A DNA stretch of 64,000 nt from contig CAKXXW010000003.1 in the NCBI GenBank assembly GCA_934378145.1, positions 13,512 through 77,511 of the forward strand, given 5' to 3'. This DNA comes from an uncultured Eubacteriales bacterium (GTDB lineage: Bacteria; Bacillota; Clostridia; Oscillospirales; CAG-272). The notes below the pieces were generated by a model that was not told where the DNA came from, searched no databases, and worked only from the letters and a program-made list of their open reading frames with translations. Positions 14,565-58,606 of the stretch are shown one piece after another; within the stretch, counting starts at the first letter, position 1, and every line of letters starts with the position of its first letter. Position numbers and translations under genes: made by a program.

Positions 14565-14848
14565 GGGGTAAACGCAAAAATTGCGCAGCCCGCGACCACC
14601 TGAAGCAGGAGGATAACGGGTATCCCTACCATAAATTTCGGGTGCTTTGTCTTGTGACGGATGATCAGCATCGTTACGAGCATTGCGAAAGAGCCTCCGA
14701 GTACGGAAAGAAGCATCAGCGTAGCCTCGGGGACTCTTTGTGAGCCGCTCTTCGCTTTTACCTTGTCGGCGACCGTCACGATGACCGAGATCAGCGAGAT
14801 GAGTATCAGCCATCCGGGCAGGACGCGGAAGAAGATAAGCTCCTTCAC
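14561..14848 (-). CDS. DUF1294-family small membrane protein
   Basis: RVPEATLMLLSVLGGSFAMLVTMLIIRHKTKHPKF matches the DUF1294 signature. It probably uses the GTG start at 14848, which overlaps the glnS stop (GTGA). The longer 190-aa ORF lies inside glnS in another frame. Confidence 0.6.
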   Translation of the reverse strand: MKELIFFRVLPGWLILISLISVIVTVADKVKAKSGSQRVPEATLMLLSVLGGSFAMLVTMLIIRHKTKHPKFMVGIPVILLLQVVAGCAIFAFTP

Positions 14849-16503
14849 GCCTTTTTCGGGAAGCTGTCCTTGAGTTCGACGACGCGGTTGAAAACGCCGG
14901 GATTCTTCGTGTCGAGGCAGAAGTAGCCCGTGCGGACGAACTGGAACTTTTCGCCCGGCTTTGCGTCGGCGAGCGAAGGCTCGACCATTACATTTTCGAC
15001 CTTTTCCGCAGAGGTCGGGTTGAGGAAGTCGATATAGGATTTGCCCTCGGGAAGGTCGTTCATATTTTCCTCTGTAAAGAGTCTGTCGTAGAGGATCGCA
15101 GTCGCGGGCTTTGCGTAGTCGGCGGAGAGCCAATGGATCGTGCCCTTGACCTTGTGTCCGTCGGCGGGCATGCCGCAGCCCGTTTCAAGGTCGGCGTTGA
15201 CATGGACGGCTTTGACGCTTCCGTCCTCGTTGGTCTCGAGCGAGGCGAACTTCACGATATAGGCTCCCATAAGCCTTACTTCGCCGTCGGGCTTGAGGCG
15301 GAAGAACTTCGGAGGCGGCACCTGCGCGAAGTCATCCGCGTCGATATAAAGCTCGCGGGTGAAGGGAAGGGCGCGTGTTCCCGCCTCGGGATCGCCGGGG
15401 TTGTTCGGAAGGTCAAAGTATTCGGTCTTGCCCTCCGGGAAGTTGTCGACGATGAGCTTTATCGGCGAGATAACGGCTATGCGGCGCTGTGCGTGGGCGT
15501 TGAGGTCCTCTCTGATGCAGTGTTCGAGAAGCCCTATATCGACCATGCTGTTCGATTTGGAGACTCCTATCCTCTGACAGAAGTCAAGGATAGATTCGGG
15601 GGTATAGCCGCGACGGCGCAGACCGCAGAGGGTCGGCATACGCGGGTCGTCCCAGCCGTCGACGATGTTGTTTTCGACGAGGTAGCGAAGGTATCTCTTC
15701 GACAGTACGGTGTTCGTTATATTGAGGCGCGCGAATTCGATCTGGCGCGGCTTGCAGTTCACGCTGACATTGTTTATGACCCAATCGTAGAGCGGGCGGT
15801 GGATCTCGTACTCAAGCGAGCAGAGCGAGTGCGTGATGCCCTCGATCGCGTCCTGTATCGGGTGGGCGAAATCGTACATCGGGAAGATGCACCATTTCTT
15901 GCCCTGCCTGTGGTGGTCGATGTAGCGTATGCGGTAGATGACCGGATCGCGCATACAGAAGTTGCCCGAGGCAAGGTCGATCTTCGCGCGGAGCGTGTAT
16001 TTGCCTTCCGGGAATTCTCCGTTCTTCATCCTCTCGAAAAGGTCAAGGCTCTCTTCGACAGGTCTGTCGCGCCAAGGCGAGACTGCCGGATGCGTGAGGT
16101 CTCCGCAGTATGCCGGATCGCGGAACTGCTCGGCGCTCAGCTCGCATACATACGCAAGACCTTTCTTTATCAGCTCGACGGCGTATTCATAATCCCGATC
16201 AAAGTAATCCGAGCCGTAGTAGAAGCGGTCGCCCCAGTCGAAGCCGAGCCAGTGGATGTCTTCCTTTATCGCATCGACAAATTCGGTGTCCTCCTTTGCC
16301 GGGTTGGTGTCGTCCATCCTGAGGTTGCATTTCCCGCCGTACTTTGCCGCGGTGCCGAAGTCGATTATCAGCGCCTTGCAGTGACCTATGTGAAGGTAGC
16401 CGTTCGGCTCGGGCGGGAAGCGGGTGTGTATCTCGTCGGCGCGGTATTTGCCTTCTTTTATTTCTTCGTCGATTATATCGTGTATAAAATTGGTACTTTC
16501 CAT
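14845..16503 (-). CDS. glnS: Glutamine--tRNA ligase
   Basis: Very close to the E. coli GlnRS pattern: TRFPPEPNGYLHIGHCKA (HIGH), NLRMDDTNP, VLSKR (KMSKS). Confidence 0.92.
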   Translation of the reverse strand: MESTNFIHDIIDEEIKEGKYRADEIHTRFPPEPNGYLHIGHCKALIIDFGTAAKYGGKCNLRMDDTNPAKEDTEFVDAIKEDIHWLGFDWGDRFYYGSDYFDRDYEYAVELIKKGLAYVCELSAEQFRDPAYCGDLTHPAVSPWRDRPVEESLDLFERMKNGEFPEGKYTLRAKIDLASGNFCMRDPVIYRIRYIDHHRQGKKWCIFPMYDFAHPIQDAIEGITHSLCSLEYEIHRPLYDWVINNVSVNCKPRQIEFARLNITNTVLSKRYLRYLVENNIVDGWDDPRMPTLCGLRRRGYTPESILDFCQRIGVSKSNSMVDIGLLEHCIREDLNAHAQRRIAVISPIKLIVDNFPEGKTEYFDLPNNPGDPEAGTRALPFTRELYIDADDFAQVPPPKFFRLKPDGEVRLMGAYIVKFASLETNEDGSVKAVHVNADLETGCGMPADGHKVKGTIHWLSADYAKPATAILYDRLFTEENMNDLPEGKSYIDFLNPTSAEKVENVMVEPSLADAKPGEKFQFVRTGYFCLDTKNPGVFNRVVELKDSFPKKA

Positions 16504-16515
16504 ACGCTCTCTCCG

Positions 16516-18219
16516 TTAAAGATTATTTATCATCGAATTTATTCTTGCTCTGACCCTGTCCTCACCGAGGATATTCATAACGGTGAACATATCGGGCGAG
16601 TTGAGCTTTCCGGTCACGGCGACGCGGATGAACATACTGATGTCGGCGACGCTTCCGCGGTACTGTGTCGGATCGGCTTTGTAAGCCTTCATATCCGAGG
16701 CATAGCCGAGATCATCCGCGATAGCCTTGATCTTGTCGAACCATACATTCTGGTCGTCTGCGGGATCATAGCTGCAGAGGAAAGATGCGAGCGCTTTCTT
16801 TATGTCGTTCTTATCTGCCGTTTCGGGATAGGCATCGGTCACGGCAAAGCTGTCGTCATAGAAGAGGCTCGTGTATTCTTTAAGCTCGACATAGGTGCCG
16901 TAGTCCTTGCGCGGCTTTTTGCCTCCCCTGCCTATGGAGATTATCGCCTTCGCGTAATCGGGGTCGGCTTTGAGCTTTTCGGAATAATCGGGGTCGAAAT
17001 CCTCCGCCCAGCCGAGAAGTCCGGCATAGACCTTGTCGGCGGTCATGCGTGAGAAGACATTCTTCGATACATCCCCGAGCTTGGCAAGGTCGAAAAGGCA
17101 TCCCGATGCCGACATTTTTTTTATATTGAAGGGGAAGTCGGTGTAAGGCTTGTCGGGGTTCTGCATATGCCATTCCTCGTAGTTCGAGTTGAGCAGGGTC
17201 ATGATGTATTCGCAGACACATTCGGGAGCGTAGCCGAGGCGCGAGTAGTCCTCAAGGTTCGCGCCCATGTCCCTCTTCGAGAGCTTCTTTTTATTGCCGT
17301 TCTCGTCAAGGCGCATGATCTGCGAGTTGTGCATATATTTCGGGAGTCTGAAGCCGAGGTACCTGAAGAGCTGGATATGCTTTGCGACGCTCGGGAGCCA
17401 TTCCTCGCCGCGTATGACATGAGTCGTACCCATGAGATGATCGTCCACCGCGTGCGCGAAGTGGTAGGTAGGGATGCCGTCGGATTTGAGAAGCACGAAG
17501 TCCTCGTCGTTTTCGGGTATCTCAAGAGTACCCTTCACAAGGTCGGTGAACTTGGTCTTTTTCGACGGGTCTCCGTCGGCAAGCAGACGGAGGACGAAGG
17601 GTTCGCCGGCATCAAGGTGAGCTTTGACCTCTTCAAGGGTTATCGAGCGCTCGCGCATCTTCTGCTCTTTCCTTGCCGCTTCCTCGGCGAGCCATGCCTG
17701 CTCGTCCCATTCCTTCTTTTCTTTTATCTCTGCCTTCTTGTCCTTCGCGTTAAGTTCGTCAAGCTCCTCCGCCGTCGAAAAGCAGGGATAAGCGAGTCCG
17801 CGTCTGACAAGGTCTTTCGCATAGACATGGTATATCGGTCCGCGAAGGCTCTGCTTGTAGGGACCGTAGTTTCCTTTATCGACTATATTTCCGTTTTCGT
17901 CAAGAGCGGCGCCCTCGTCGAAATGTATCCCGTATTTCGCAAGGGTCACGATGAGAGCCTCGGCAGCGCCGGGGACCTCGCGCTTTGCGTCGGTATCCTC
18001 TATTCTGAGTATGAACACGCCGCCCGATTGGTGGGCGAGCCTTTCGCCCGTCGTCGTGGGAAGGAGTCCGCCGAAATGCACAAAGCCCGTTGGACTCGGG
18101 GCAAAGCGCGTCACCTTCGCGCCCTCGGGCAGTTTTCTCGTGGGATATTCAGCCTCCATATCGGCGGGGGTTTTCGTAACTTCGGGGTAGAGAAGCTCTG
18201 CGAGCATATTGTAGTCCAT
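16516..18219 (-). CDS. gltX: Glutamate--tRNA ligase (long form)
   Basis: RFAPSPTGFVHFGGL (HIGH-type), KLSKR, and the class I catalytic core RIEDTD. Confidence 0.88.
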   Translation of the reverse strand: MDYNMLAELLYPEVTKTPADMEAEYPTRKLPEGAKVTRFAPSPTGFVHFGGLLPTTTGERLAHQSGGVFILRIEDTDAKREVPGAAEALIVTLAKYGIHFDEGAALDENGNIVDKGNYGPYKQSLRGPIYHVYAKDLVRRGLAYPCFSTAEELDELNAKDKKAEIKEKKEWDEQAWLAEEAARKEQKMRERSITLEEVKAHLDAGEPFVLRLLADGDPSKKTKFTDLVKGTLEIPENDEDFVLLKSDGIPTYHFAHAVDDHLMGTTHVIRGEEWLPSVAKHIQLFRYLGFRLPKYMHNSQIMRLDENGNKKKLSKRDMGANLEDYSRLGYAPECVCEYIMTLLNSNYEEWHMQNPDKPYTDFPFNIKKMSASGCLFDLAKLGDVSKNVFSRMTADKVYAGLLGWAEDFDPDYSEKLKADPDYAKAIISIGRGGKKPRKDYGTYVELKEYTSLFYDDSFAVTDAYPETADKNDIKKALASFLCSYDPADDQNVWFDKIKAIADDLGYASDMKAYKADPTQYRGSVADISMFIRVAVTGKLNSPDMFTVMNILGEDRVRARINSMINNL

Positions 18220-22123: not shown

Positions 22124-23650
22124 ATGAAAAAGCAAACGCTTGTAAGAATCCTTGTCTGTATGCTGATCCTTGCAATGATCGTGCCGATCGCCGCCTGCAC
22201 GCAGACGGGCAATAACGGAGGAAACGGTACGACGACTGCGGACAACGGCGAAAACAGCAATACGCCGTCCAGCAGTGATGACAACGGTCAGGTAACGGAC
22301 GCGCCCGTAGTCCCCGAAGATGTCAGATATGACGGTCAGGTCATAAGGACCCTTTTCTGGAGCGATGTTGAACACAACGAATTCGACATCGAAGCCGCCG
22401 ACGGAGACGATGTAAACAACGCTCTCTGGAACCGCAACAACAATGTTGAGGACCGCTTCGGCATCACCCTTGAGTGGGTCGGTGAAAAAGGAAACGGCGA
22501 CAACATCGGTAACTTCAACAACAAGATGAAGGCTATCCACGAAGGCTCGGACAACGAAAAGTATCACATGTTCGCTACATATTCGATCACCGCAACCACG
22601 GCATCGGTCAACGGATACTGTAAGAACCTTCTGTCCGATGATTGCGAATACCTTGATTTCTCGAACGAATGGTGGCCGAAGAACCTTATCAAGCAGATCA
22701 CCTTCGGTGACAACCTCTACTTCGCGTCGGGCGATATTTCGCTGAACACCCTCTACATGATGTATGTCTGCTATGTCAATACCGATCTTCTTGCGGCACA
22801 TCAGCTTCAGAACCCGCAGGAACTTGTCGGAAGCGGCGAATGGACTTACGACAAATTCTTCGAGATGTGCGAGAACATCTATGAGGCAAGCGGCGATAAT
22901 AAAACCGGCACCAAGGCAGTCGGCGATACCTTCGCTTACATGACGAGAACTATACATGCCGACCCGTGGTTCTACGGCACCGGTGCCCTCATCTGCTCCT
23001 ACAACAGTCAGGGCAAGCTCACCGTATCGAACTCCATGAAGAGCGATGCGGTCGATGATACGATCAAGAGACTCAGACACCTCTTCTACGAGACCAACGA
23101 CGGTATCTATACCTCAAAGGTATATCATCAGAAGGAATTCGCAGCCGGACACCTTCTCTTCATGACCGACCGTGCGCGCGTCAGCTTCAAGGTAATTGCA
23201 AAAGAAGAAAATCCGCCCGCTTTCGTCATCGTTCCTTGCCCCAAGTACTCTGCGGGTAAGAGCAGCTACTCCACCGTTATCGGTAACCCCTTTACCTTCT
23301 ACGGTATTTTTGAGCGTTGCGATGAGCCTACGAAGGCTTCCGCAGTCATGGAATACTATGCATACGAGAGCTGGAAGGAAGTCACTCCCGTTGTTTACGA
23401 GCGTACCCTCAAGGGTAAGTATGTTGACGACCAGAAGTCGCGTGAAATGTACGACATAATCAGAGAAAACCTTGTTTTCGATATCGGTCGTATGTACAGC
23501 GAACAGCTCGGCGATAGCCAGAGTTACTTCAAAAAAGCAATTTCCTCAACCACAGATGTCAACTGGAAAGCGGAAGTAAAGTACGCAGAGGAAGTTATCA
23601 ATCCTCTCTGTAATAAGATCCAGGAAAAGCTCGAGAAGGGCAGCAAATAA
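22124..23650 (+). CDS. ABC transporter extracellular solute-binding lipoprotein, family 1 (large sugar/oligosaccharide type)
   Basis: Lipobox MLILAMIVPIAAC followed by an N/G/T/S-rich linker. The ~500-aa length is typical of LplA/YtcQ-like sugar-binding proteins. Confidence 0.6.
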   Translation: MKKQTLVRILVCMLILAMIVPIAACTQTGNNGGNGTTTADNGENSNTPSSSDDNGQVTDAPVVPEDVRYDGQVIRTLFWSDVEHNEFDIEAADGDDVNNALWNRNNNVEDRFGITLEWVGEKGNGDNIGNFNNKMKAIHEGSDNEKYHMFATYSITATTASVNGYCKNLLSDDCEYLDFSNEWWPKNLIKQITFGDNLYFASGDISLNTLYMMYVCYVNTDLLAAHQLQNPQELVGSGEWTYDKFFEMCENIYEASGDNKTGTKAVGDTFAYMTRTIHADPWFYGTGALICSYNSQGKLTVSNSMKSDAVDDTIKRLRHLFYETNDGIYTSKVYHQKEFAAGHLLFMTDRARVSFKVIAKEENPPAFVIVPCPKYSAGKSSYSTVIGNPFTFYGIFERCDEPTKASAVMEYYAYESWKEVTPVVYERTLKGKYVDDQKSREMYDIIRENLVFDIGRMYSEQLGDSQSYFKKAISSTTDVNWKAEVKYAEEVINPLCNKIQEKLEKGSK

Positions 23651-33678: not shown

Positions 33679-33713
33679 GGGCTGACAGCGGGGAAACGGG
33701 AGATACGAAGGAT

Positions 33714-33749
33714 GCGGGGGAAACTTTCTTGGAAGAAAGTTTCCCCCGC
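33714..33749 (+). terminator. Perfect 17-bp-stem hairpin downstream of glyA (terminator-like, no U tract)
   Basis: GCGGGGGAAACTTTCTT-GG-AAGAAAGTTTCCCCCGC, 36 nt after the glyA stop. Confidence 0.4.
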
Positions 33750-33780
33750 GCCCTCTTCAAAGAACTTTGCCCAAGGGTTT

Positions 33781-34203
33781 GTAGGGGAGGATATTATCCT
33801 CCCGCCCGGCAGTGTCGGGAGCCGACCCTCGCGGATTATATGCCGAATGACGAAATCTTCACCCGGAGATGATGCTTTACTAAGGGTAAGAAAAACCTCA
33901 CTTCTATCGAATGATGACCACCTAAGCCGAGGCTCCCTCCGGGAGGGAGCTGGATTTCCGACCCGTAGGGGAGGAAAGACTGAAGGAGCCCGCGGTATAA
34001 AAATTTTATACAGGCAACCGGATTGTTTGCGATCGTAAATCGTTAGTGCCGCGGGCTCTTTCAGTCGCCTTCGGCGCCAGCTTCCTCCCGGAGGAAGCCT
34101 CTTGTCTGCATAAATCGTTCTTTCATTTATAGGGCGATGCTTTTAATTGAAACGGTAGGGGCGACCATTGGTCGCCTGCCGGGAGGATAATATCCTCCCC
34201 TAC
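33781..34203. repeat. Non-coding ~420-bp element built from three nested inverted-repeat pairs (MITE-like or a long structured RNA)
   Basis: Outer pair 33781-33812 / 34176-34203 (GTAGGGGAGGATATTATCCTCCCGCCCGGCAG versus CTGCCGGGAGGATAATATCCTCCCCTAC). Middle pair 33929-33953 / 34077-34101. Inner pair 33978-33995 / 34049-34066. ORFs in the region show no coding character. Confidence 0.6.
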
Positions 34204-34258
34204 GGGTATGCGGAAAGCGATCACAGGCGCACGCACAAAACGAATATGAAAATGCCGC

Positions 34259-34286
34259 CCCCCGCGAGGGAAATTCCTCGCGGGGG
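34259..34286 (-). terminator. Hairpin terminator downstream of the pilin-like adhesin gene
   Basis: CCCCCGCGAGG-loop-CCTCGCGGGGG. On the minus strand it is followed by the U-rich GCGGCAUUUUCAUAUUCGUUUU. Confidence 0.5.
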
Positions 34287-34343
34287 CGAACACATATTAT
34301 TATTTATTTTGATTCGTTGGCAATGTTACTATTCCGACGGCAA

Positions 34344-35699
34344 TTACCAAGATTTCGTCATTTTATCCGGAGTAAAGTCCTTATCGTCTATCGCTTTCCA
34401 GTTTGTAACGGTTTTGTTCTCTTCGTCGGTAACAGTTGTCTTAGCTTTGTTGCTCTGATTTATACCGTAGAATCCGAATTTTGCGGTTGCCTGTCTGTAC
34501 GAATTTTCATCCTTGACAACACACTGCATACCGTTGACTGTTTTAAGAGTGGCATCGGGGCTGATATGTGCCGAAGAATTATCGTTGACTGTGATGTTTG
34601 AAAGCGTAATGCTGCTATTTTCAAGACTGGTATGATTGTCACTGCTACCTGTTACAACACCGAAAAGCAGTCCGCACTCGCCGCCCTTGGAATAAACATT
34701 TGAGTTTTCGACGGTTACATTGTTTATTTTGACATTATAATTATCTTTGGTTACATATCCGAACAGAAGACCTGTCTTATTGTCGCCGTACACAGTGGAA
34801 TTTTTGATCTTGACATTTGATATTTCGACATCGCCACTCACATGAGAAGCAAATATTGCACCTTGGGATTTTTCATATGTACCGACTACCGCACTGTCGA
34901 TTGTTAGGTCTTTTACGGTCAGATCTTTGACCCATCCGAACATCGCGGCACCGTAGTTGGTGCTTTCAGATCCGTCGGAACTAGTTCCGAATCCCGAATG
35001 ATTATCCGATATATATAATCCGGTAATCGTATGATTATTTCCGTTGATTGTAACTTTAGGCGCATTGCCACTGTTGTTCTTATCAACAAAACATACATCC
35101 GCGCCGTTGAGGTTCATATCAGCGGTGATATTAATCGTGATGTTTTTGTCATTGAGTTCATTGGTAGTATACTGCATAAAATATTCCGCTATCTTTACAA
35201 GGTCGGCAGCGCTTTTTGCTTCGTATGTGTCATTGTCCTGCGGTGCATTGGCAGGTGTTTGGAATTTTGCCTTTGATGTATCAATCTTTCCGCTGAGGGA
35301 GAACCACTGGTTGCCGTTCGTGGTGTCATCGGATTTGGATGTGACATCCTTGTATTCATCGGGGTAAAGGACTTTGTTGTCCTTGTCGGTGTAAAGAACG
35401 CGGTTCAGCTTGCTGTCCCAGAAGAAATATCTGTCGGAGACGAGCGGACGGTAATCTTTTGCAGTCATGCCGCCGGCTTTCAGCGCGGCATATACATCGG
35501 TGATGTCCTTGTTGCCCGTGACCTCGTTCACTGCGAGGAAGGTGTTCATTTCGCGGCACGCCTGAATGTCCGCGCTGGTGTTAGCTTTCTGAATGAGGCT
35601 CGCGAAGGTGGGGATAAGCACTGCCGCGAGTATGGCAATTATCGCAATCACGATGACCAGCTCGACGATAGTGAAACCCTTTTTGGTGCTTCTTTTCAT
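34344..35699 (-). CDS. Prepilin-type N-terminal cleavage/methylation domain protein fused to a beta-helix (GLUG-like) adhesin domain
   Basis: N-terminus MKRSTKKGFTIVELVIVIAIIAILAAVLIP is the class III signal (G/FTxxE plus hydrophobic helix). The C-terminal ~300 aa show periodic beta-helix repeats (INGNNHTITGL, GAAMFGWV, GLLFGYV, GLLFGVV, N[IV]x[IV]xN). AAGGAG RBS. The gene is visibly AT-rich compared with its neighbours. Confidence 0.75.
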   Translation of the reverse strand: MKRSTKKGFTIVELVIVIAIIAILAAVLIPTFASLIQKANTSADIQACREMNTFLAVNEVTGNKDITDVYAALKAGGMTAKDYRPLVSDRYFFWDSKLNRVLYTDKDNKVLYPDEYKDVTSKSDDTTNGNQWFSLSGKIDTSKAKFQTPANAPQDNDTYEAKSAADLVKIAEYFMQYTTNELNDKNITINITADMNLNGADVCFVDKNNSGNAPKVTINGNNHTITGLYISDNHSGFGTSSDGSESTNYGAAMFGWVKDLTVKDLTIDSAVVGTYEKSQGAIFASHVSGDVEISNVKIKNSTVYGDNKTGLLFGYVTKDNYNVKINNVTVENSNVYSKGGECGLLFGVVTGSSDNHTSLENSSITLSNITVNDNSSAHISPDATLKTVNGMQCVVKDENSYRQATAKFGFYGINQSNKAKTTVTDEENKTVTNWKAIDDKDFTPDKMTKSW

Positions 35700-35745
35700 G
35701 GTTTTTTCTCCTTTTTTGAATTGTTTTTCGCGGTAAGACGCGAAT

Positions 35746-35928
35746 TTTTTTTCGCAGAGTTACCAACTCTACGAAGTCAAAAGGGCTTTTAAGACCATAA
35801 AAATGAAGCGTTCGTGGCGCTTGTTCACAAATGGATGGATAAACAAAATATTTTTTTGAAATTCTATTGACATTGAAGGCAATATGTGGTATAATCGTGT
35901 CGTAGAGTTGGTAACTTTACGAAAAAAA
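35746..35928. promoter_or_regulatory. Candidate invertible promoter segment (inverted repeats flanking a consensus promoter)
   Basis: AGTTACCAACTCTACGA at 35758-35774 has a perfect reverse complement at 35900-35916. The repeat extends to 29 bp with 2 mismatches (35746-35774 / 35900-35928). The enclosed 125 bp carry the promoter listed next. Confidence 0.5.
35867..35895 (+). promoter_or_regulatory. Perfect consensus sigma-A promoter, currently directed away from the pilin-like gene
   Basis: TTGACA (35867-35872), 17-nt spacer, TATAAT (35890-35895). Confidence 0.65.
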
Positions 35929-35954
35929 CCTCGCAGGAATCTGCGAGGTTTTTT
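35922..35954. terminator. Bidirectional intrinsic terminator (radC terminator; also stops plus-strand transcripts from the 35867 promoter)
   Basis: AAAAAAA-CCTCGCAG-GAAT-CTGCGAGG-TTTTTT. Confidence 0.8.
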
Positions 35955-35978
35955 CATTATATTTATTTTTTTGCCGGT

Positions 35979-36692
35979 TTATCTTCTTTTGAGCTTCGGG
36001 ACATTGTCAAACCTGTCGCTGTGGCTGCGCTTTTCGTGGATTATCGCATAATATTGATTTCCCGCCACCACATAATGCTCTATCAGCGGCACGCTCATCT
36101 GATTACATATGAATTCGAGCTGATGCGTTATCTCGATGTCGCTGCCAGACGGCGACGCGATCCCGCTCGGGTGATTGTGCGCGAGGACTATGCAGGCGGC
36201 GTGCGACAGTATAGCCTCCTCGATCAGCGGCTTGACAGAAAAAGCCACAAGGTTCGTCATACCGTCGGCGAGTTTGCGGCAGGACAGCATCTCCATCTTG
36301 CCGGTGAAGGTAAGGATATAGACCTCCTCGACCTTTTTGCCGAGAAAGAGGCGTTTCAGGTAATCCCCGAGCTTTTCGACCGTTTCAAAGCGCTCGTTCT
36401 GCTTCGCCTCGGAGAGCAGGTAGCGGCGCGAAAGCTCCGCCGAAAATTTTATCAGCGTTGCCGCGTGTTCGCCGATGCCCTCGACCTCGAGAAGCTCCTC
36501 ATATGATGCTTCAAGCACCTCACGGAGCGAGCCGAAGCGATTTATAAGCCTGTGTGCGATAACATTCGTGTCCTGTCTCGGGATACCGAAGAAAAGCAGA
36601 AGTTCGATGACCTGATGCTCGTCAAAACAGTCAAGACCGTTTTTCAGAAATCGGTTTTTCATTCTCTGCCGATGTTCGGCGTGTTCGTTCAT
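35979..36692 (-). CDS. radC: RadC-family JAB-domain protein
   Basis: N-terminal HhH region (LELLLFFGIPRQDTNVIAHRLI..FGSL) and the JAMM motif LAHNHPSG. Confidence 0.88.
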   Translation of the reverse strand: MNEHAEHRQRMKNRFLKNGLDCFDEHQVIELLLFFGIPRQDTNVIAHRLINRFGSLREVLEASYEELLEVEGIGEHAATLIKFSAELSRRYLLSEAKQNERFETVEKLGDYLKRLFLGKKVEEVYILTFTGKMEMLSCRKLADGMTNLVAFSVKPLIEEAILSHAACIVLAHNHPSGIASPSGSDIEITHQLEFICNQMSVPLIEHYVVAGNQYYAIIHEKRSHSDRFDNVPKLKRR

Positions 36693-41098: not shown

Positions 41099-44000
41099 AT
41101 GAAACGCTCACTTTCACTTGTTCTTGTGTTAGCTTTGGTCATCGGTATGTTCTCTGTATTCGCGATTTCCGCGGGTGCCGAAGATACGACCGCAGCGCCC
41201 GAAGCTCCCACAGAGCCCACGACTCCTACGGAACCTACATTCCCCGAGGGTGCCGTGGCTATTGCCACCGCAGAAGAATTTGCGGCGATGGAAGCCGGTA
41301 AGTACTACTATCTTACCGCCGACATCACTGTCGCAGCTACTTACGAGACCGATTTTACCGGAACATTCGACGGTAACGGTCATACCGTCACGACCTCTGT
41401 GGCTCTTTTCAAGACACTGAAGGGTGCAACTGTAAAGAACCTTACTCTCAATGGTGAAGTCACTGCGGCGGCTGACGACAATCGTGCGGCAGTTCTGGCA
41501 AAAAATGCAAGTAAGGTCACGATTGAGAATGTTGTCAACAATGCCAACCTCAATGCAAGCTGCAAGGGCGGCTATGTCGGCGGCTTCATTGCACAGGGCT
41601 CGACCGGCGGCGGAACGGCGAAGACTCATGAAAAGAGCTATTTCACCAACTGCGTCAATAACGGTAATATTACTTATGTTTACGAAGACGCCGCGAATCA
41701 GGATACTCCCCGTGTTGCCGGTATAATCGGTAATGTCGCGAAGTATCAACACGGCGTATATACCAACTGCGTAAACAACGGTAAAGTCAGTGTCACCGGA
41801 GCCGGACTCAAAGGCGCTCCCTACGTAGCAGGTATTGCCGGAAGCTCATTCGGCGGAGATTTCGTAAACTGCGTCAACAACGGCGACCTTTACTGCACCG
41901 CGGGTGCCCATATGGGCGGTATCCTCGGCAGAGGAACTCCCTCCTCGCAGGACACCAATCAGTCGTCGACTGCTACCGGATGCGTCAACAACGGTAACCT
42001 TACGATAGCAACCGATCCCGCCATAACAAGCGGCTCGCTCGGCGGCATCTTCGGTCATTGCGGTGTTACGATGAAGAAGACCGCAAACGCCATTTACACT
42101 GTCGAGAAATGCGTCAACACAGGTACTCTTACCTGCAGCGGTTCGCAGGCCGGCGGTATGATCGGTTATGTCTGGGGATCCAACAACGAAAAGACATGGT
42201 CGTATCCCGTGATAAAGGATTGCATCAATGTCGGTAAGCTCGTCGGTACGAAGAATGCCACCCCCGAGACCGAACCCGACACCACATTCTTCCGCGCTAC
42301 CTACCTTTCGCACTTCGTTGGTTATGTCAACGCCAGCAATACCATTATCGATAATTGCTTCGGTCTTGGCACGCTTGAGAACACCAATGACGATTATAAT
42401 GTTATCTTCGGACTTTCCTCCGATGTTGCTCTTAACTTTAAGATAGGTAATATTTACCTTGCTCCCAACGACGGAACAAAGAACTATTCCTACGGTCATG
42501 ATGCTTGGGTTGATACCAAAGACGAAGCAGGCAATCCTGTTAAGGATGATGCGGGCAAGACAGTTCAGCATCTCGAAGACAGAAGCGCAAACCGTATCAC
42601 CATTGCGGCGTATCAGGCAAATACTGACATGGCAGGCAATGTTGTCAACGACAAGGATGTCTTCGCGACAGACGGAACCACTGCTTCTCTCATCGAGGCT
42701 ACCGTTACTGCTATCAACGCAAATGACAACGGATTCTTCTTCGTTGACGGCGGCAAGGTCAACAGCCTTGAGGCTGCTGTTGCGGCGGTCAAGGACGGCG
42801 GAACGATCGTTCTTCTCAACGATGTCACCCTTGCGGCTGCTGCTACGGTCGAGAAGAGCAATATGACCTTCACGATCGACGGCGCGGGTCACACCCTTAC
42901 CGGATCGGTCACTCTCAAGACCCCCGGATGCACTGTCAATGTCAACAATCTTAAGGTAGTCGGCAATGTTGTCACCGATGTCAACACTGCCGAAACTATG
43001 GCTACACTCAATGCAAACGGTCTCGAGATCGACGCTACCGCAAAAGGTACTGCTCTCACCAACAACGGTTTCTGGAATATAAACCTTGAAGGTTGCAGAT
43101 TTGTTTCCAAGAGCGCTGCATTCGACAACAAGCTTTCGGGCGGTTGCGATAATGCAAAAATCGTTATCAACAAATCTTATTTTGAAGGTAAAGAATCTTA
43201 CGCTATATACCTCAGACAGGGTTGCGAAGCCGTAATCACAGATTCTACCCTTATCTCGTCCAAGAATTCGGGTATTCAGATGATTACCGCTACCGAGGGC
43301 AAGGGCACGACCCTCAGACTCAATAACTGCAATATCACATCGACAACCGCTTATTGCGTGGCTGTCAACCCCTTCAACAAGGTCTATATCAACGGCGGTG
43401 TTTATGCTACCACTAATAAGGATGCCTGTATAAATGTCAACGGAGAAAACGCTTACTGCGAAATCAGAAGCGGTTCGTTCACATCCAACCAGAACTGCGC
43501 GGCGAGAGCCTACGGTGCAGGTGCAACTCTTGATATCTATGACGGTGAGTTCTACTACACCGGAACCGCCGGCGGAAGCGCTATCCGCGGCGGAACCAAG
43601 GATAAGGGCGGCACGATCAATATCCACGGCGGCGTGTTCAGCTCGGCGGGAACCGAGTATGCCGTTATCAACGGTGTACATGCCGACAGCGTTATAACCA
43701 TCAACGCAGGTAAGTTCATCAACGCCGGTACGGCTGTCATTCCGGTTTACACGAAGACCGGCTCTGCCGGAACCGATTCGATCGACTTCCCGGAAGGCCA
43801 GAAGGAATTCGTGCTTGGGAATCCCACTCCTTCCGACACCACCACTGAGAACAAACCCGGCGACACCACCACCGAAAACAAGCCCGGTGACACCACCACC
43901 GAGAATAAGCCCGGTGACACTACCACCGAGAACAAGCCCGGCGACAACACCACTACCGAAAGCAAGCCCACCGATTCCAACAAGCCCGGTGACACCACCA

Positions 44001-44116
44001 CCGGTGCTACCGAAGAGGGCGGATGCAACGGTTGCGGCGGTTTCGCAGCAGCGGCTCAGGTAGTTGCTCTTCTCGTTGGCGTCGTGGGCGTTGCCCTCGT
44101 CGTAAAGCGCAAATAA
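41099..44116 (+). CDS. Large secreted beta-helix (GLUG-like/PbH1-like repeat) surface protein with a Thr/Pro-rich stalk and a Cys-containing C-terminal anchor
   Basis: Signal peptide MKRSLSLVLVLALVIGMFSVFAISAGA. FTGTFDGNGHTVTTS module. Periodic GG[FIM]I[AG] motifs (GGFIAQG, AGIIGNV, AGIAGSS, GGILGRG, GGIFGHC, GGMIGYV). 4x TTTENKPGD repeats. Tail EEGGCNGCGGFAAAAQVVALLVGVVGVALVVKRK. Confidence 0.8.
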   Translation: MKRSLSLVLVLALVIGMFSVFAISAGAEDTTAAPEAPTEPTTPTEPTFPEGAVAIATAEEFAAMEAGKYYYLTADITVAATYETDFTGTFDGNGHTVTTSVALFKTLKGATVKNLTLNGEVTAAADDNRAAVLAKNASKVTIENVVNNANLNASCKGGYVGGFIAQGSTGGGTAKTHEKSYFTNCVNNGNITYVYEDAANQDTPRVAGIIGNVAKYQHGVYTNCVNNGKVSVTGAGLKGAPYVAGIAGSSFGGDFVNCVNNGDLYCTAGAHMGGILGRGTPSSQDTNQSSTATGCVNNGNLTIATDPAITSGSLGGIFGHCGVTMKKTANAIYTVEKCVNTGTLTCSGSQAGGMIGYVWGSNNEKTWSYPVIKDCINVGKLVGTKNATPETEPDTTFFRATYLSHFVGYVNASNTIIDNCFGLGTLENTNDDYNVIFGLSSDVALNFKIGNIYLAPNDGTKNYSYGHDAWVDTKDEAGNPVKDDAGKTVQHLEDRSANRITIAAYQANTDMAGNVVNDKDVFATDGTTASLIEATVTAINANDNGFFFVDGGKVNSLEAAVAAVKDGGTIVLLNDVTLAAAATVEKSNMTFTIDGAGHTLTGSVTLKTPGCTVNVNNLKVVGNVVTDVNTAETMATLNANGLEIDATAKGTALTNNGFWNINLEGCRFVSKSAAFDNKLSGGCDNAKIVINKSYFEGKESYAIYLRQGCEAVITDSTLISSKNSGIQMITATEGKGTTLRLNNCNITSTTAYCVAVNPFNKVYINGGVYATTNKDACINVNGENAYCEIRSGSFTSNQNCAARAYGAGATLDIYDGEFYYTGTAGGSAIRGGTKDKGGTINIHGGVFSSAGTEYAVINGVHADSVITINAGKFINAGTAVIPVYTKTGSAGTDSIDFPEGQKEFVLGNPTPSDTTTENKPGDTTTENKPGDTTTENKPGDTTTENKPGDNTTTESKPTDSNKPGDTTTGATEEGGCNGCGGFAAAAQVVALLVGVVGVALVVKRK
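43835..43942 (+). repeat. Four in-frame 27-bp tandem repeats encoding DTTTENKPG, followed by degenerate copies
   Basis: Units at 43835-43861, 43862-43888, 43889-43915 and 43916-43942. The copies differ only at synonymous positions. Confidence 0.85.
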
Positions 44117-44212: not shown

Positions 44213-46009
44213 ATGAAAAAGATTATTTCAATTGTCGTTGCTGTCCTCATGGCAGCAACACTTTTTGCGGCTCTCCCCTTCGCCGTTTCGGCTGACGAGA
44301 CGCCCGCAACTCCTGCCGCCCCCGAAGGCACCGCTGTAAAGACCACAGAGGAATTTATGGCTATGGTCGACGGCGGTACATACTATCTTGACGCGGACAT
44401 CGTTATTTCCGAGACAAAGGCGTCCTTCACCGGAACCCTTGACGGAAACGGTCATGCGATAGTTACCTCTGCACCTATATTCCAGAACCTCGGAGATGCG
44501 ACAATTAAAAATCTCACCATTACCGGTGAAGTCGCAAAAGACACCACCAAAGATTGGAGCGCCGCCCTTGCCGTATATGTCGTTTCTTCTGCGACCGTCA
44601 CGATCGAGAATGTTGTCAACGCCGCAAATGTCAGCGGCAAACGCGTCGGCGGCTTCATTACCGACACTGTTGCCGGAGCTACCGTTGACGGCGTCTTCAA
44701 GCCCACGACCGTAAAGTTTATCAACTGCGCAAACACCGGCGCAATGAACGGCACCGAGCTTGTCGGAGGCTTCCTCGCCTACCCGCACGGCGATGTTCTC
44801 GAGATGACCAACTGCAAGAACACCGGAAAGATCACATCTACCGGTTATGCTGCCGGTCTGGTCGCGCGCTTCGGTCCCAATGCGACATATTCGGCTGACA
44901 TGAAAGCTACCTTCACAAACTGCGTCAACACCGCTGAAGTAAACAGCAGCGGTGAGTATGCCGGCGGTATCCTTGCTTATTCGCGCGGAAGCTACCTTAA
45001 GTTCGACTCCTGCGTCAATGAGGGCAAGGTCACCAATACCTCGAAGGGTGTCGGCGGTATCGCCGGATACCTCGGATACAAAAACGGGCAGTCCGTCGTT
45101 GCGGATTTCGTAAAATGCGTCAACAAGGGCGAGATCGTTCTCAACAAGGTTGATGCCGGTGGATCTGCAGCCGCCGGAGCTATGGTCGGTTATGTTTACG
45201 GAATCGGAAAAGATGAAACCGGCAGAGCCGGTGTGGATTCCTGCATAAACCTCGGCACGATAACTACCGGTTGGTACGGCTCGCAGTTCATCGGTTACTG
45301 CAACTCGAAATACTGCTTTATTAAGAACAGCATCGCTGCGGGAAGCGTAAAGGCTCTTGAAGGTACCTCGAAATTTTATTCCTGCGTTATCGGATGCTCG
45401 AGCGCCGATCTTACCGCATGCGAAATAAAGAATGTTTTCTACCTTGAAAACGACGGCACCGAATATTATTCTTATGCGACCGCCGATGCCAACAGCGGCA
45501 ACATAGTGAAGCTCACAAATTACCTCAGCGCTGATGCGACCAAGGACAATATCACGGTCGTCACCGCAGAGGATCTTGCAAGCGGTAAGGTCGCGTACAG
45601 GCTCAACAAGGCTGCCGGCGAGACTGTCGTTTATCAGACCCTCGGCACCGATACCGTTCCTGTTCTCGACAATACTCACGGTGTAGTTTACCTCAACAAC
45701 GGTGCCTACTCGAACACCGCTCCCGACCCGAATGACACAAGCACGGAGCCTGTCGAAGATACCACCGCTGACGGCGGTGACAACACCACCACCGAAAGCA
45801 AGCCCAACGAATCCGACAAGCCCGGTGACAATACCACTACCGAAAATCAGCCCACCGACTCCAAGCCTACTGATTCTAAGCCCACCGACACCACCGGTGC
45901 TGCCGAAGAGGGCGGATGCAACGGTTGCGGCGGATTCGCAGCAGCGGCTCAGGCAGTTGCTCTCCTTGTCGGCGTTGCGGGCGTTGCCCTCGTCGTCAAG
46001 CGCAAATAA
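44213..46009 (+). CDS. Paralogous secreted beta-helix surface protein with the same Cys-containing C-terminal anchor
   Basis: Signal peptide MKKIISIVVAVLMAATLFAALPFAVSA. FTGTLDGNGHAIVTS. GG[FI]xx motifs (GGFITDT, GGFLAYP, AGLVARF, GGILAYS, GGIAGYL). Stalk NTTTESKPNESDKPGDNTTTENQPTDSKPTDSKPTD. Tail EEGGCNGCGGFAAAAQAVALLVGVAGVALVVKRK. Confidence 0.8.
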   Translation: MKKIISIVVAVLMAATLFAALPFAVSADETPATPAAPEGTAVKTTEEFMAMVDGGTYYLDADIVISETKASFTGTLDGNGHAIVTSAPIFQNLGDATIKNLTITGEVAKDTTKDWSAALAVYVVSSATVTIENVVNAANVSGKRVGGFITDTVAGATVDGVFKPTTVKFINCANTGAMNGTELVGGFLAYPHGDVLEMTNCKNTGKITSTGYAAGLVARFGPNATYSADMKATFTNCVNTAEVNSSGEYAGGILAYSRGSYLKFDSCVNEGKVTNTSKGVGGIAGYLGYKNGQSVVADFVKCVNKGEIVLNKVDAGGSAAAGAMVGYVYGIGKDETGRAGVDSCINLGTITTGWYGSQFIGYCNSKYCFIKNSIAAGSVKALEGTSKFYSCVIGCSSADLTACEIKNVFYLENDGTEYYSYATADANSGNIVKLTNYLSADATKDNITVVTAEDLASGKVAYRLNKAAGETVVYQTLGTDTVPVLDNTHGVVYLNNGAYSNTAPDPNDTSTEPVEDTTADGGDNTTTESKPNESDKPGDNTTTENQPTDSKPTDSKPTDTTGAAEEGGCNGCGGFAAAAQAVALLVGVAGVALVVKRK

Positions 46010-56631: not shown

Positions 56632-57765
56632 ATGAGATTTCTGCTTGCGGGCGGCGGCACGGGAGGTCACATAAACCCCGCGCTCGCCATAGCCGATATA
56701 ATAAAGAATAATTTTCCCGATCCCGAGATAGCCTTTGTCGGCACGAAGAAGGGAATGGAGAACCTTCTCGTCGGCAGGGAGGGCTATCCGATATATCACA
56801 TAGAGGCGAGGGGCTTTCAGCGCTCGCTGAGTCCGAGAAACATCGCGGCGGCGTGGTATTATGTGACCTCTCCGATGAAGGCGAAGAAACTGATGAAGGA
56901 ATTCCGCCCCGACATCGTGATAGGTACGGGCGGCTATGTCTGCTATCCTCCGCTGAAGGCTGCCGCAGACCTCGGCATACCGACCCTCGTCCACGAGTCG
57001 AACGCGACCCCGGGACTTGCGGTCAGGCTGCTCCAGCACAAGGTCGACCGGATACTCTTCAACTTCCCGGGAAGCGCCGAACTGCTTGACGAAAAGGACA
57101 AATGTGCCGTCGTCGGCAATCCCGTCCGCGGGAGCTTCGGAAGTTACAGCCGCGAATCGGCGAGGAAGGCGCTCGGGATAGACGATAAATACAGGCTCGT
57201 TCTGCTCTCCTACGGCGGGAGCCGCGGTGCGCCGGCGATAAACGATGCTGCGATACGGATAATGAAGGAATATACCTCGCAGCACCCCGAGGTGCTTCAT
57301 ATCCACGCGACGGGAAAAGAGAATTTTGCCGAGACGAAGCGGGCGTTTGACGCCGCGGGACTCGGGAAATATAAAAACATCGAATTCTGCGATTACCTTT
57401 ACGATATGCCGAAGAAGCTCTCCGCCGCCGACCTTGTCATCTCGCGCGCGGGAGCCATGACCGTGACCGAGATGGCGCGGCTCGCAAAGCCCTGCATCAT
57501 GATACCGTCGCCCCATGTTGCCGACGATCATCAGTATAAGAACGCAAAACTGCTCGAGGATGCCGGAGCGGTCAGGATAATCAGGGAGGACAAGGCGACT
57601 CTTAAGGTCGAGGACAGGATAGTCGGCGAAGTCTCGGAACTTCTTTCCGATCCCGCGGCGAGGCAGGGACTGAGCCGGAATATCGCCGCCTTCGCGGGTA
57701 AGGATGCCGGTGTGCTGATCCTGCGCGAGATAGAGAGCCTGCTTAAAAAATATGAAAAAAAGTAA
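56632..57765 (+). CDS. murG: UDP-N-acetylglucosamine--N-acetylmuramyl-(pentapeptide)-pyrophosphoryl-undecaprenol GlcNAc transferase
   Basis: GGGTGGHINPALAIA N-terminus, SRAGAMTVTE, and HQYKNA. Confidence 0.92.
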   Translation: MRFLLAGGGTGGHINPALAIADIIKNNFPDPEIAFVGTKKGMENLLVGREGYPIYHIEARGFQRSLSPRNIAAAWYYVTSPMKAKKLMKEFRPDIVIGTGGYVCYPPLKAAADLGIPTLVHESNATPGLAVRLLQHKVDRILFNFPGSAELLDEKDKCAVVGNPVRGSFGSYSRESARKALGIDDKYRLVLLSYGGSRGAPAINDAAIRIMKEYTSQHPEVLHIHATGKENFAETKRAFDAAGLGKYKNIEFCDYLYDMPKKLSAADLVISRAGAMTVTEMARLAKPCIMIPSPHVADDHQYKNAKLLEDAGAVRIIREDKATLKVEDRIVGEVSELLSDPAARQGLSRNIAAFAGKDAGVLILREIESLLKKYEKK

Positions 57766-58606
57766 ACCCGTTGCGGAAAATACGCCGCCCGTGCGCGGAA
57801 AAAAGCCCCCCCGTGTGAAAAAAAGCCCCGCTCCGAGGCGCTCACGCCCTCAACTCAAGGCAGGAAGCCTGAAGGTAATAGTCATTCTTGCCGCGGTGAT
57901 TTTCCTTATGATTGCGGGAATAATTGCCGTAAATATCGTCTCGTTCGTCCGGGGCGGCGTGATACTTGTCGGCGGAGAGTCACCCTACACCGATGAGGAG
58001 ATAATCCGCGCGACGGGGATAAACAGCCGGCTGCTCCTCTTTGCCGACACGGAAAAGGCGGAAAAAACGCTTCTTGAATCAAAGCCCTATATACGCGAGG
58101 CGAGGATAGAAAAGCTCCTCTGCTTCGCCGTCATCTCGGTGAAGGCGGACAAGCCCGCGTACTTTATAGTCAACGACGGCGAGAGCTTCATCCTGTCGGA
58201 GGATATGAGGGTCATCGACTGCCTGTCCTCTGTCGCCGAGGCGCGCGAAACGGGTGCCGTAAGGCTCGAGCTTCCCGACCTTGCCGTGCTTAAGGTCGGC
58301 TATCCCGTCGAATATGACGCCGACGGCAAGAACACCTATGTCGCGAAGATGCTTGAGCTTATAAAGTCGAAGGATTATGCGCCCTATGTGACCGAGATAG
58401 GTCTCGCGGGGAAGTACGACGATGTTTATATAACTTTTTACGGCAAGTGCCGGATATTCCTCGGAAGCATCAACGATTTCGAGGAGAAGATGAGGATCGC
58501 CGAGACGCTTCTTGAGGACAACCGCGACAGCATATACAGTTGTGCGGTCATAAATGTCTCGGTCCCCGACCGCCCGACCTTCAGACCGGTGGATTCGCTT
58601 GACTGA
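57752..58606 (+). CDS. ftsQ: Cell division protein FtsQ/DivIB (POTRA domain)
   Basis: Basic N-terminus, single TM (VIVILAAVIFLMIAGIIAVNIV), and a POTRA-like segment. Located between murG and ftsZ. Confidence 0.7.
   Translation: MKKSKPVAENTPPVRGKKPPRVKKSPAPRRSRPQLKAGSLKVIVILAAVIFLMIAGIIAVNIVSFVRGGVILVGGESPYTDEEIIRATGINSRLLLFADTEKAEKTLLESKPYIREARIEKLLCFAVISVKADKPAYFIVNDGESFILSEDMRVIDCLSSVAEARETGAVRLELPDLAVLKVGYPVEYDADGKNTYVAKMLELIKSKDYAPYVTEIGLAGKYDDVYITFYGKCRIFLGSINDFEEKMRIAETLLEDNRDSIYSCAVINVSVPDRPTFRPVDSLD

Follow-up and report, generated by a model that had tools for sequence, protein, structure and literature searches.

We analyzed a stretch of 64,000 nucleotides from an uncultured Eubacteriales bacterium (contig CAKXXW010000003.1, positions 13,512 to 77,511; this whole stretch is called the window in the following), in which a short DNA segment carrying a consensus promoter lies between two inverted repeats (IRs) in front of the gene for a modular type IV pilin-like adhesin. 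With a probability of about 0.75 we consider this element to be a genuine inverton, that is, a promoter-inversion phase-variation switch for the adhesin. A preliminary description of the same DNA had already proposed an invertible promoter, and this reading is strengthened by the anatomy of the element, the pattern of constraint among its copies, the dyad structure of its repeats, its presence at several chromosomal loci and a sister cassette that was found in both orientations, whereas the cassette type of the window itself (type 1) has been seen OFF only. The parts of the locus are given here with their coordinates in the window.

34344-35699, minus strand: the controlled gene, coding for a modular type IV pilin-like adhesin of 451 amino acids (aa), in which a class III signal/N-methylation motif is combined with a pectate-lyase-like beta-helix adhesive domain.
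35700-35751, minus strand: fixed part of the 5' untranslated region (UTR) of this gene, with a hairpin at 35727-35744 and the ribosome-binding site (RBS) AAGGAG at 35708-35713.
35740-35774: proximal (pilin-side) repeat arm, with the perfect core at 35758-35774 and the dyad site TCGCAGAG-TTACCAA-CTCTACGA at 35752-35774.
35775-35899: putative invertible segment, 125 bp between the core repeats.
35806-35822, minus strand: weak terminator-like hairpin in the segment, facing the pilin gene in the OFF orientation.
35821-35830: interior motif TTGTTCACAA, about 40-45 nt upstream of the -35 box, invariant in type 1 and present in a sister cassette (type 2).
35867-35895, plus strand: sigma-A/sigma-70-type promoter TTGACA-17-TATAAT with a TG extended -10, matching the consensus at 12/12 positions.
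35900-35934: distal (RadC-side) repeat arm, with the perfect core at 35900-35916.
35900-35922: distal dyad site TCGTAGAG-TTGGTAA-CTTTACGA, that is, inner half-site, 7-bp asymmetric centre and outer half-site.
35923-35954: bidirectional intrinsic terminator with the GC stem CCTCGCAG/CTGCGAGG between an A-run and a T-run.

The inverted repeat is beyond chance. Its perfect 17-nt core, AGTTACCAACTCTACGA, has just these two matches across the window, even with three mismatches permitted, and two matches were reached in none of 100 shuffles. A perfect IR of 17 nt with a spacer of 20-500 nt did not occur in any of 100 second-order Markov simulations of the window either, the longest one being 16 nt (mean 12.1). 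Using a repeat search, the two arms, which are 125 nt apart, could be lengthened to 35 nt with 89% complementarity. This goes beyond the 29-bp repeat with two mismatches (35746-35774 and 35900-35928) that had been described correctly, as had the coordinates and the sequence of the 17-bp core.

As assembled, the promoter faces away from the pilin gene and into the bidirectional terminator, which sits just past the end of the RadC gene (35979-36692, minus strand). From its sequence this terminator is predicted to end RadC transcription, to insulate the pilin gene from upstream transcription and to stop the transcript of the OFF-state promoter after about 50 nt. The promoter is the sole strong feature of the segment, and its -10 box stops 4 nt short of the arm, so transcription would start inside the arm. 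On the minus strand between 35300 and 36300 there is no promoter-like site matching the consensus at 9 or more of 12 positions. The hairpin at 35727-35744 is terminator-like solely when read on the plus strand; on the pilin strand it is followed by AAAAACAA and would thus not terminate there. When the segment was flipped in silico, TATAAT came to lie about 65 nt upstream of the RBS, giving a predicted ON-state leader of about 73 nt, and the junctions predicted for the flipped state are distal flank-arm-AGTCAAAAGG... on one side and ...CACGATTATA(rc)-arm-proximal flank (rc, reverse complement) on the other. All this agrees with the preliminary description, which had given the position and the outward direction of the promoter, the lack of a comparable promoter toward the adhesin gene, the hairpin with a U-tract downstream of the promoter, the missing U-tract of the adhesin-side hairpin and a distance of 65-75 nt between TATAAT and RBS after inversion; the TG of the extended -10 and the bidirectional nature of the terminator can now be added.

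The segment itself has no coding capacity. The 62-aa open reading frame (ORF) of the OFF orientation is called in no locus table and the in-silico flip yields just a 27-aa ORF or ORFs without ATG. Its interior motif has the form CTTTGTTCACAG in type 2, the element shared between types 1 and 2 being TTGTTCACA, and it may be a site for an accessory or regulatory protein. The sequence TGTTCAC also opens the arm half-site of a third cassette type (type 3). The weak interior hairpin has a strong counterpart in one copy (L017) and is poorly conserved among the remaining ones, and a gene-facing terminator inside the segment was therefore dropped as a defining part of the cassette.

Every arm is in itself a dyad made of two inverted half-sites with the consensus TCGYARAG around an asymmetric 7-bp centre, the type-1 arm reading TCGYARAG-TTACCAA-CTCTACGA. 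Dyads of this form are present in the window at the two arms only, and among 11 distinct copies of the cassette 20 of 22 positions of the distal arm are invariant. The three cassette types show the geometries 8-7-8, 10-7-10 and 10-9-10, always with an odd total length and an asymmetric centre of 7-9 bp. This is the layout of the core site of a tyrosine recombinase, and the odd-length dyad together with the asymmetric centre suggests, as far as geometry can tell, that an enzyme of this class acts on the arms. Serine invertases of the Hin/Gin/Mpi type use crossover sites with an even-length dyad centred on a 2-bp crossover dinucleotide, a form that is not matched by the dyads of any of the three types. 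An exchange within the 7-bp centres, located at 35760-35766 and 35908-35914, would flip about 148 bp.

Copies of the cassette were gathered from independent assemblies via exact-protein look-ups and one metagenome pattern scan. The assembly of the window itself is ERZ27287312. The contigs related to the window derive from human-gut metagenomes, Hadza samples included, and they carry the same cassette in at least three chromosomal contexts, each time before pilin-adhesin genes. It follows RadC in the window and in L003, L004, L018, L020, L022, L023 and L043, it follows an AP-endonuclease gene in L041 (from the same metagenome as the contig of the window) and L042, and L015, L017 and L044 show other settings; one of the contexts is a region rich in repetitive extragenic palindromic (REP) sequences. 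The order of terminator hairpin, arm, outward-facing promoter, arm, conserved leader and pilin ATG is constant. As the cassette is repeated at several loci, a recombinase acting in trans is plausible. Among the 11 distinct copies the -35 and -10 boxes, the TG and the interior motif are 100% invariant and the arms are invariant at 87-91% of their positions, compared with 82% for the UTR, 64% for the promoter spacer and 35% for the remaining interior. This pattern argues for a DNA promoter and two sites of protein binding as the targets of selection, and not for an RNA stem.

A long-range RNA hairpin in a read-through transcript from RadC into the pilin gene, such as an element for RNase III processing or for stability that needs no inversion, is an alternative that we hold to be very improbable. 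The 35-nt arms are conserved and with 89% complementarity they would pair strongly if they were transcribed together, but the strong terminator directly upstream of the distal arm would leave few transcripts containing both of them. Furthermore each arm is a palindrome in itself, a property that an RNA stem would not require, the differences between the arms lie in the outer half-sites and are no G-U-compatible compensations, and what is conserved in the interior is a DNA promoter of the opposite strand. A search of Rfam at a permissive threshold gave 26.9 bits as the best score against a gathering threshold of 49, with all weak matches located on the terminator hairpins, and a hairpin could not account for the flipped interior of the type-2 cassettes described below. 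The preliminary description had named a single orientation in related genomes combined with compensatory changes as pointing to an RNA structure. Type-1 copies do share one orientation, but no covariation of the G-U type was found, which together with the self-palindromic arms and the terminator immediately before the distal arm speaks against the hairpin.

The clearest sign of an inversion comes from type 2, one of two sister cassettes that are located before more distant pilin homologues and show a like design with different arms.

Type 2 arms: TTTCGTRGAT-GGGACGA-ATCTACGAAA, enclosing a 148-nt segment.
Type 3 arms: TGTTCACCGA-TTAGATTAT-TCGGTGAACA, enclosing a 373-nt segment.

Types 1 and 2 have the half-site TCGTAGA in common and differ in their centres. 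Their interiors are homologous (alignment score 18 compared with -4 +/- 4.7 for shuffles), and they also match in the UP-like region and at the RBS/UTR end. A hairpin equivalent to the terminator at 35923-35954 adjoins the distal arm in all three types. For type 2 we were able to find both states, as it is assembled ON in L031, where a 12/12 promoter points toward the pilin gene without any same-strand terminator between promoter and ATG, and OFF in L032, where the promoter points away. The two share collinear flanks (71% and 89% identity) and arms that are 100% identical, while the 148-nt interior is 93% identical only once it is reverse-complemented and 49% identical unflipped. The ten substitutions within this interior show that the two sequences are independent, and since the flanks are homologous on both sides, the opposite orientations are found at the same site. 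Judged from these sequences, this is what would be expected as the product of an in-situ inversion. The ON junctions of L031 lie within about 120 nt of contiguous sequence and the arms have a length of only 22-30 nt.

Both orientations might also arise from separate insertions of a mobile cassette resembling a miniature inverted-repeat transposable element (MITE), with terminal IRs and an outward promoter. The element is indeed short (about 160-195 bp), ends in IRs and is multi-copy at several loci, and REP/MITE-like palindromic repeats are abundant nearby. We nevertheless consider such insertions to be quite unlikely. No direct duplication of a target site is seen; what lies outside the arms is inverted (T-run/A-run) and belongs to the extended IR. 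The position of the cassette is constant, between terminator and conserved 5' UTR, with all copies upstream of pilin genes. Cassette, UTR and pilin N-terminus occur together as a unit, and L031 and L032 show homology in the immediate flank on either side of the cassette, with opposite orientations at the same site. The 17-mer core is also missing from 185,579 species-representative genomes save for 8 single, unrelated chance matches, so that the element does not seem to be widely spread. A comparison of the type-1 and type-2 arms with viral contigs gave one chance match in AT-rich phage coding DNA (L028) and nothing more.

An unlikely explanation, too, is a fixed cassette that does not invert, in which the outward promoter would make a small RNA of about 50 nt ending at the terminator or would act as insulation, the IRs would bind a palindrome-recognising regulator and the pilin gene would depend on a promoter that went unrecognised or on an alternative sigma factor. 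It agrees with the single orientation of 14/14 type-1 copies, promoter and terminator would give a defined short transcript, and the invariant TTGTTCACAA could be an operator. The reversal of type 2 between L031 and L032 within collinear flanks would remain unexplained, however, and the same is true for the paired identical inverted dyads on both sides of the promoter in three types whose arm sequences are unrelated. No gene-facing promoter is conserved, L017 even has a strong gene-facing terminator, and no Rfam family reached its threshold.

Several points weigh against an inverton. The window's own type-1 cassette was ON in 0/14 independent assemblies or loci, all of them being OFF, although this fits a switch with a minority ON state since a consensus assembly reports the majority state. 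The sole ON example is a single 2.1-kb scaffold (L031, from sample ERZ28613653) of a different cassette type, which is mosaic relative to L029. We infer the assignment to a tyrosine recombinase as well as the crossover position from the site geometry alone. A Pfam scan of the about 50 ORFs of the window revealed neither a tyrosine nor a serine recombinase, in line with the preliminary description, and no recombinase gene was found beside any cassette examined. A recombinase encoded in cis as in fimS is thus not present, the neighbours being RadC, DUF1846, MreB, SHMT and MGS. Contigs L005, L006, L030, L045 and L046 end at or near the arms, but these breaks are equally well explained by a repeat that occurs in several copies and strains. 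L005 ends 1 nt past the core, at a base that is common to two strain variants diverging at the next base, and the ends of L006, L030, L045 and L046 bracket the cassette. Scaffolds from MERR22-1 samples (for example SAMEA4765921 and SAMEA4766193) are among those broken at the arms. Contig ends were considered as evidence for mixed orientations and rejected, as the cassette is a multi-copy repeat and the break in L005 is better explained by a strain single-nucleotide polymorphism.

Taking the element as an inverton, we propose the following mechanism. In the OFF state the promoter would fire into the terminator adjoining the distal arm and give an abortive transcript of about 50 nt with a predicted end at 35954-35960, and the pilin gene, having no recognisable promoter, would be shielded by the terminator from transcription coming from RadC. 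A site-specific recombinase encoded in trans would bind the two half-sites (TCGYARAG) of each arm, and strand exchange within the asymmetric 7-bp centre (TTACCAA) would flip about 148 bp. In the resulting ON state, with TATAAT about 65 nt upstream of the RBS, transcription would start in the proximal arm and read through the hairpin lacking a U-tract into the gene, with a leader of about 73 nt. Shared half-sites with different centres would allow one recombinase family to flip each locus and would prevent recombination between loci, and the result could be a combinatorial ON/OFF display of highly divergent adhesins from several cassettes.

The protein behind the putative switch shows the features of a type IV pilin. 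It matches Pfam N_methyl with E = 8e-7, and its N-terminus MKRSTKKGFTIVELVIVIAIIAILAAVLIPTF contains the methylation motif KKG/FT(I/L)xE followed by a hydrophobic alpha-helix. Type IV pilins from the PDB match residues 3-80 with E-values down to 1e-8, and the sole name given by a source within the protein family is 'type II secretion system protein [Clostridia bacterium]'. A surface adhesin is the kind of gene that is usually under phase variation. At its fixed locus the gene is hypervariable (34344-35699 compared with L004, L018, L020, L021-L023 and L043), with at least five allele classes of 449-514 aa among strains whose adjacent gene for serine hydroxymethyltransferase (SHMT) is at least 99.4% identical at the nucleotide level. 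In these strains the C-terminal domains of the adhesin are 19-30% identical and the N-terminal 110 aa 53-96%.

Downstream of the pilin gene follows a spacer of 665 bp (33679-34343) with dense nested palindromic REP-like repeats, for example 33781-33810/34174-34203 and 33929-33953/34077-34101 (GAGGCTCCCTCCGGGAGGGAGCTGG). Repeats of this family are also located upstream of other pilin loci (L032 at 1912-2086, L033 and L044), and in L018 and L020 the spacer comprises only about 229 bp. Some close members of the adhesin family are without IRs (L036 at 1416-2001, L037 at 579-1164, L038-L040 at 1615-2000). P0003 and P0005, which are 78-80% identical to the protein of the window, are encoded by second genes behind an ORF of 159-173 aa that has a fixed TTGACA-17-TATAAT promoter, and the region upstream of P0016 is GC-rich and repeat-laden with no recognisable promoter.

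The adhesin P0015 is located behind a type-2 cassette in L031 (405-1873) and behind a type-1 cassette at the RadC locus in L029 (2501-3969). Counted from the ATG, nucleotides 99-1468 (1,370 nt) are identical between both contigs, the first about 100 nt show 12 synonymous differences, and the cassette as well as the upstream and downstream DNA differ. This mosaic is either a real exchange of modules or a chimeric scaffold. The identical adhesin body behind two cassette types hints at a further possibility, which we put forward only tentatively and consider rather doubtful, namely that the locus is one node of a two-layer system of antigenic variation in uncultured Clostridia of the gut, in which orthogonal invertible promoters are combined with an exchange of adhesin modules between loci. 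In the first layer the half-site TCGTAGA and orthogonal 7-bp centres would let a single trans-acting tyrosine recombinase toggle the loci independently and without inter-locus rearrangement. In the second, the conserved 5' region of the pilin genes and the REP-like repeats on the 3' side might serve as homology arms for an exchange of modules.

The window as a whole belongs to the core chromosome of a spore-forming Firmicute. It contains the genes for YqfD, PhoH, Era, RecO, MutS2, PheS, two Glx-tRNA synthetases, Gpr and ThrRS as well as SHMT, RadC, MreB and the division cluster from mraZ to ftsZ. The two synthetases are tandem class-I Glu/Gln-tRNA synthetase paralogues (14845-16503 and 16516-18219, minus strand), one being GlnRS-like with both anticodon-binding domains and the other one GluRS-like. 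Two adjacent ORFs (41099-44116 with 1005 aa and 44213-46009 with 598 aa) show a weak sub-threshold likeness to the N-terminal region of M26 IgA1-specific metallopeptidases and may be uncharacterised surface proteins. No Pfam match at E <= 0.001 was obtained for the ORFs at 22124-23650 (508 aa) and 57752-58606 (284 aa), the latter lying inside the division/cell-wall cluster between murG and ftsZ, the usual place of an FtsQ/DivIB-like gene.

Promoter inversion is a well-known route of surface variation in gut bacteria, and most of the detailed work on it concerns Bacteroides, enterobacteria and C. difficile. If our reading is true, these cases are joined by a family of type IV pilin-like adhesins under phase variation in uncultured spore-forming Clostridia of the human gut, present in the Hadza and in other cohorts. 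The kind of switch is known, and what stands out is a multi-locus family with shared half-sites and distinct centres, a modular pilin as the target and an extreme allelic diversity of the adhesin. A compact switch at several loci together with such a diversity of adhesive domains points to strong host, phage or immune selection on the fibres. With this knowledge it might be possible to use the arm sequences as PhaseFinder targets in existing metagenomes, to predict the specificity of the recombinase from the logic of half-sites and centres, and to reuse the compact cassette as a genetic switch in Firmicutes. In the literature we found no description of the element, its arm sequences or pilin invertons in gut Clostridia, a provisional result as the tables of the large inverton catalogues lay outside the search. 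The cassette motifs are absent from the accessible part of the supplements of the hCom2 inverton paper, and pilins of Firmicutes are not mentioned in the general papers on invertons.

Among the closest known systems, the promoters of capsular polysaccharides in Bacteroides fragilis are multi-locus invertons with related IRs that are flipped by the trans-acting global serine invertase Mpi. They resemble the present family in that promoter segments at several loci bring about a combinatorial surface variation in a gut commensal. The differences are the phylum, the target (capsule loci instead of single pilin-adhesin genes) and the unrelated arm sequences, and the odd-length dyads with a centre of 7-9 bp would fit a tyrosine recombinase better than a serine invertase. 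The fimS element of E. coli, inverted by FimB and FimE, likewise carries a sigma-70 promoter on a short element bounded by IRs, controls an adhesive surface fibre in an ON/OFF manner and has OFF as the majority state in many conditions. In contrast to the present element, which measures 125-148 bp, is multi-copy and was found to have no adjacent recombinase, fimS is a single locus of 314 bp with 9-bp IRs and adjacent tyrosine recombinases. The architecture of the adhesin, a pilin N-terminal module joined to a large adhesive module, corresponds to that of the modular type IV pilins PilB and PilC from Streptococcus sanguinis, and no modular pilin described so far is known to be under inverton control. 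DNA inversion is used for pilin variation by Piv of Moraxella as well (cited in PMC5903667), but there it swaps pilin coding segments and not a promoter.

In Clostridia, invertons are a common feature, and the gene for the recombinase frequently lies elsewhere (PMC5903667; PMC11892184). The RecV-dependent switches of C. difficile (flgB/Cdi4, cwpV/Cdi1 and cmrRST) are also short intergenic invertible segments 5' of surface or motility genes with imperfect IRs of about 20 bp, and they are flipped by a recombinase that is encoded elsewhere and serves several loci (PMC5903667). Their repeats are mostly unrelated between switches, only Cdi2 and Cdi5 sharing theirs (PMC5903667), and several of them act by terminator formation or through the leader and not by a promoter carried on the segment. 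Compared with them, no RecV homologue was identified among the ORFs of the window or the neighbours of the cassettes, and the family described here combines a consensus promoter on the segment with arms or half-sites common to many loci and a pilin-like adhesin as its target.

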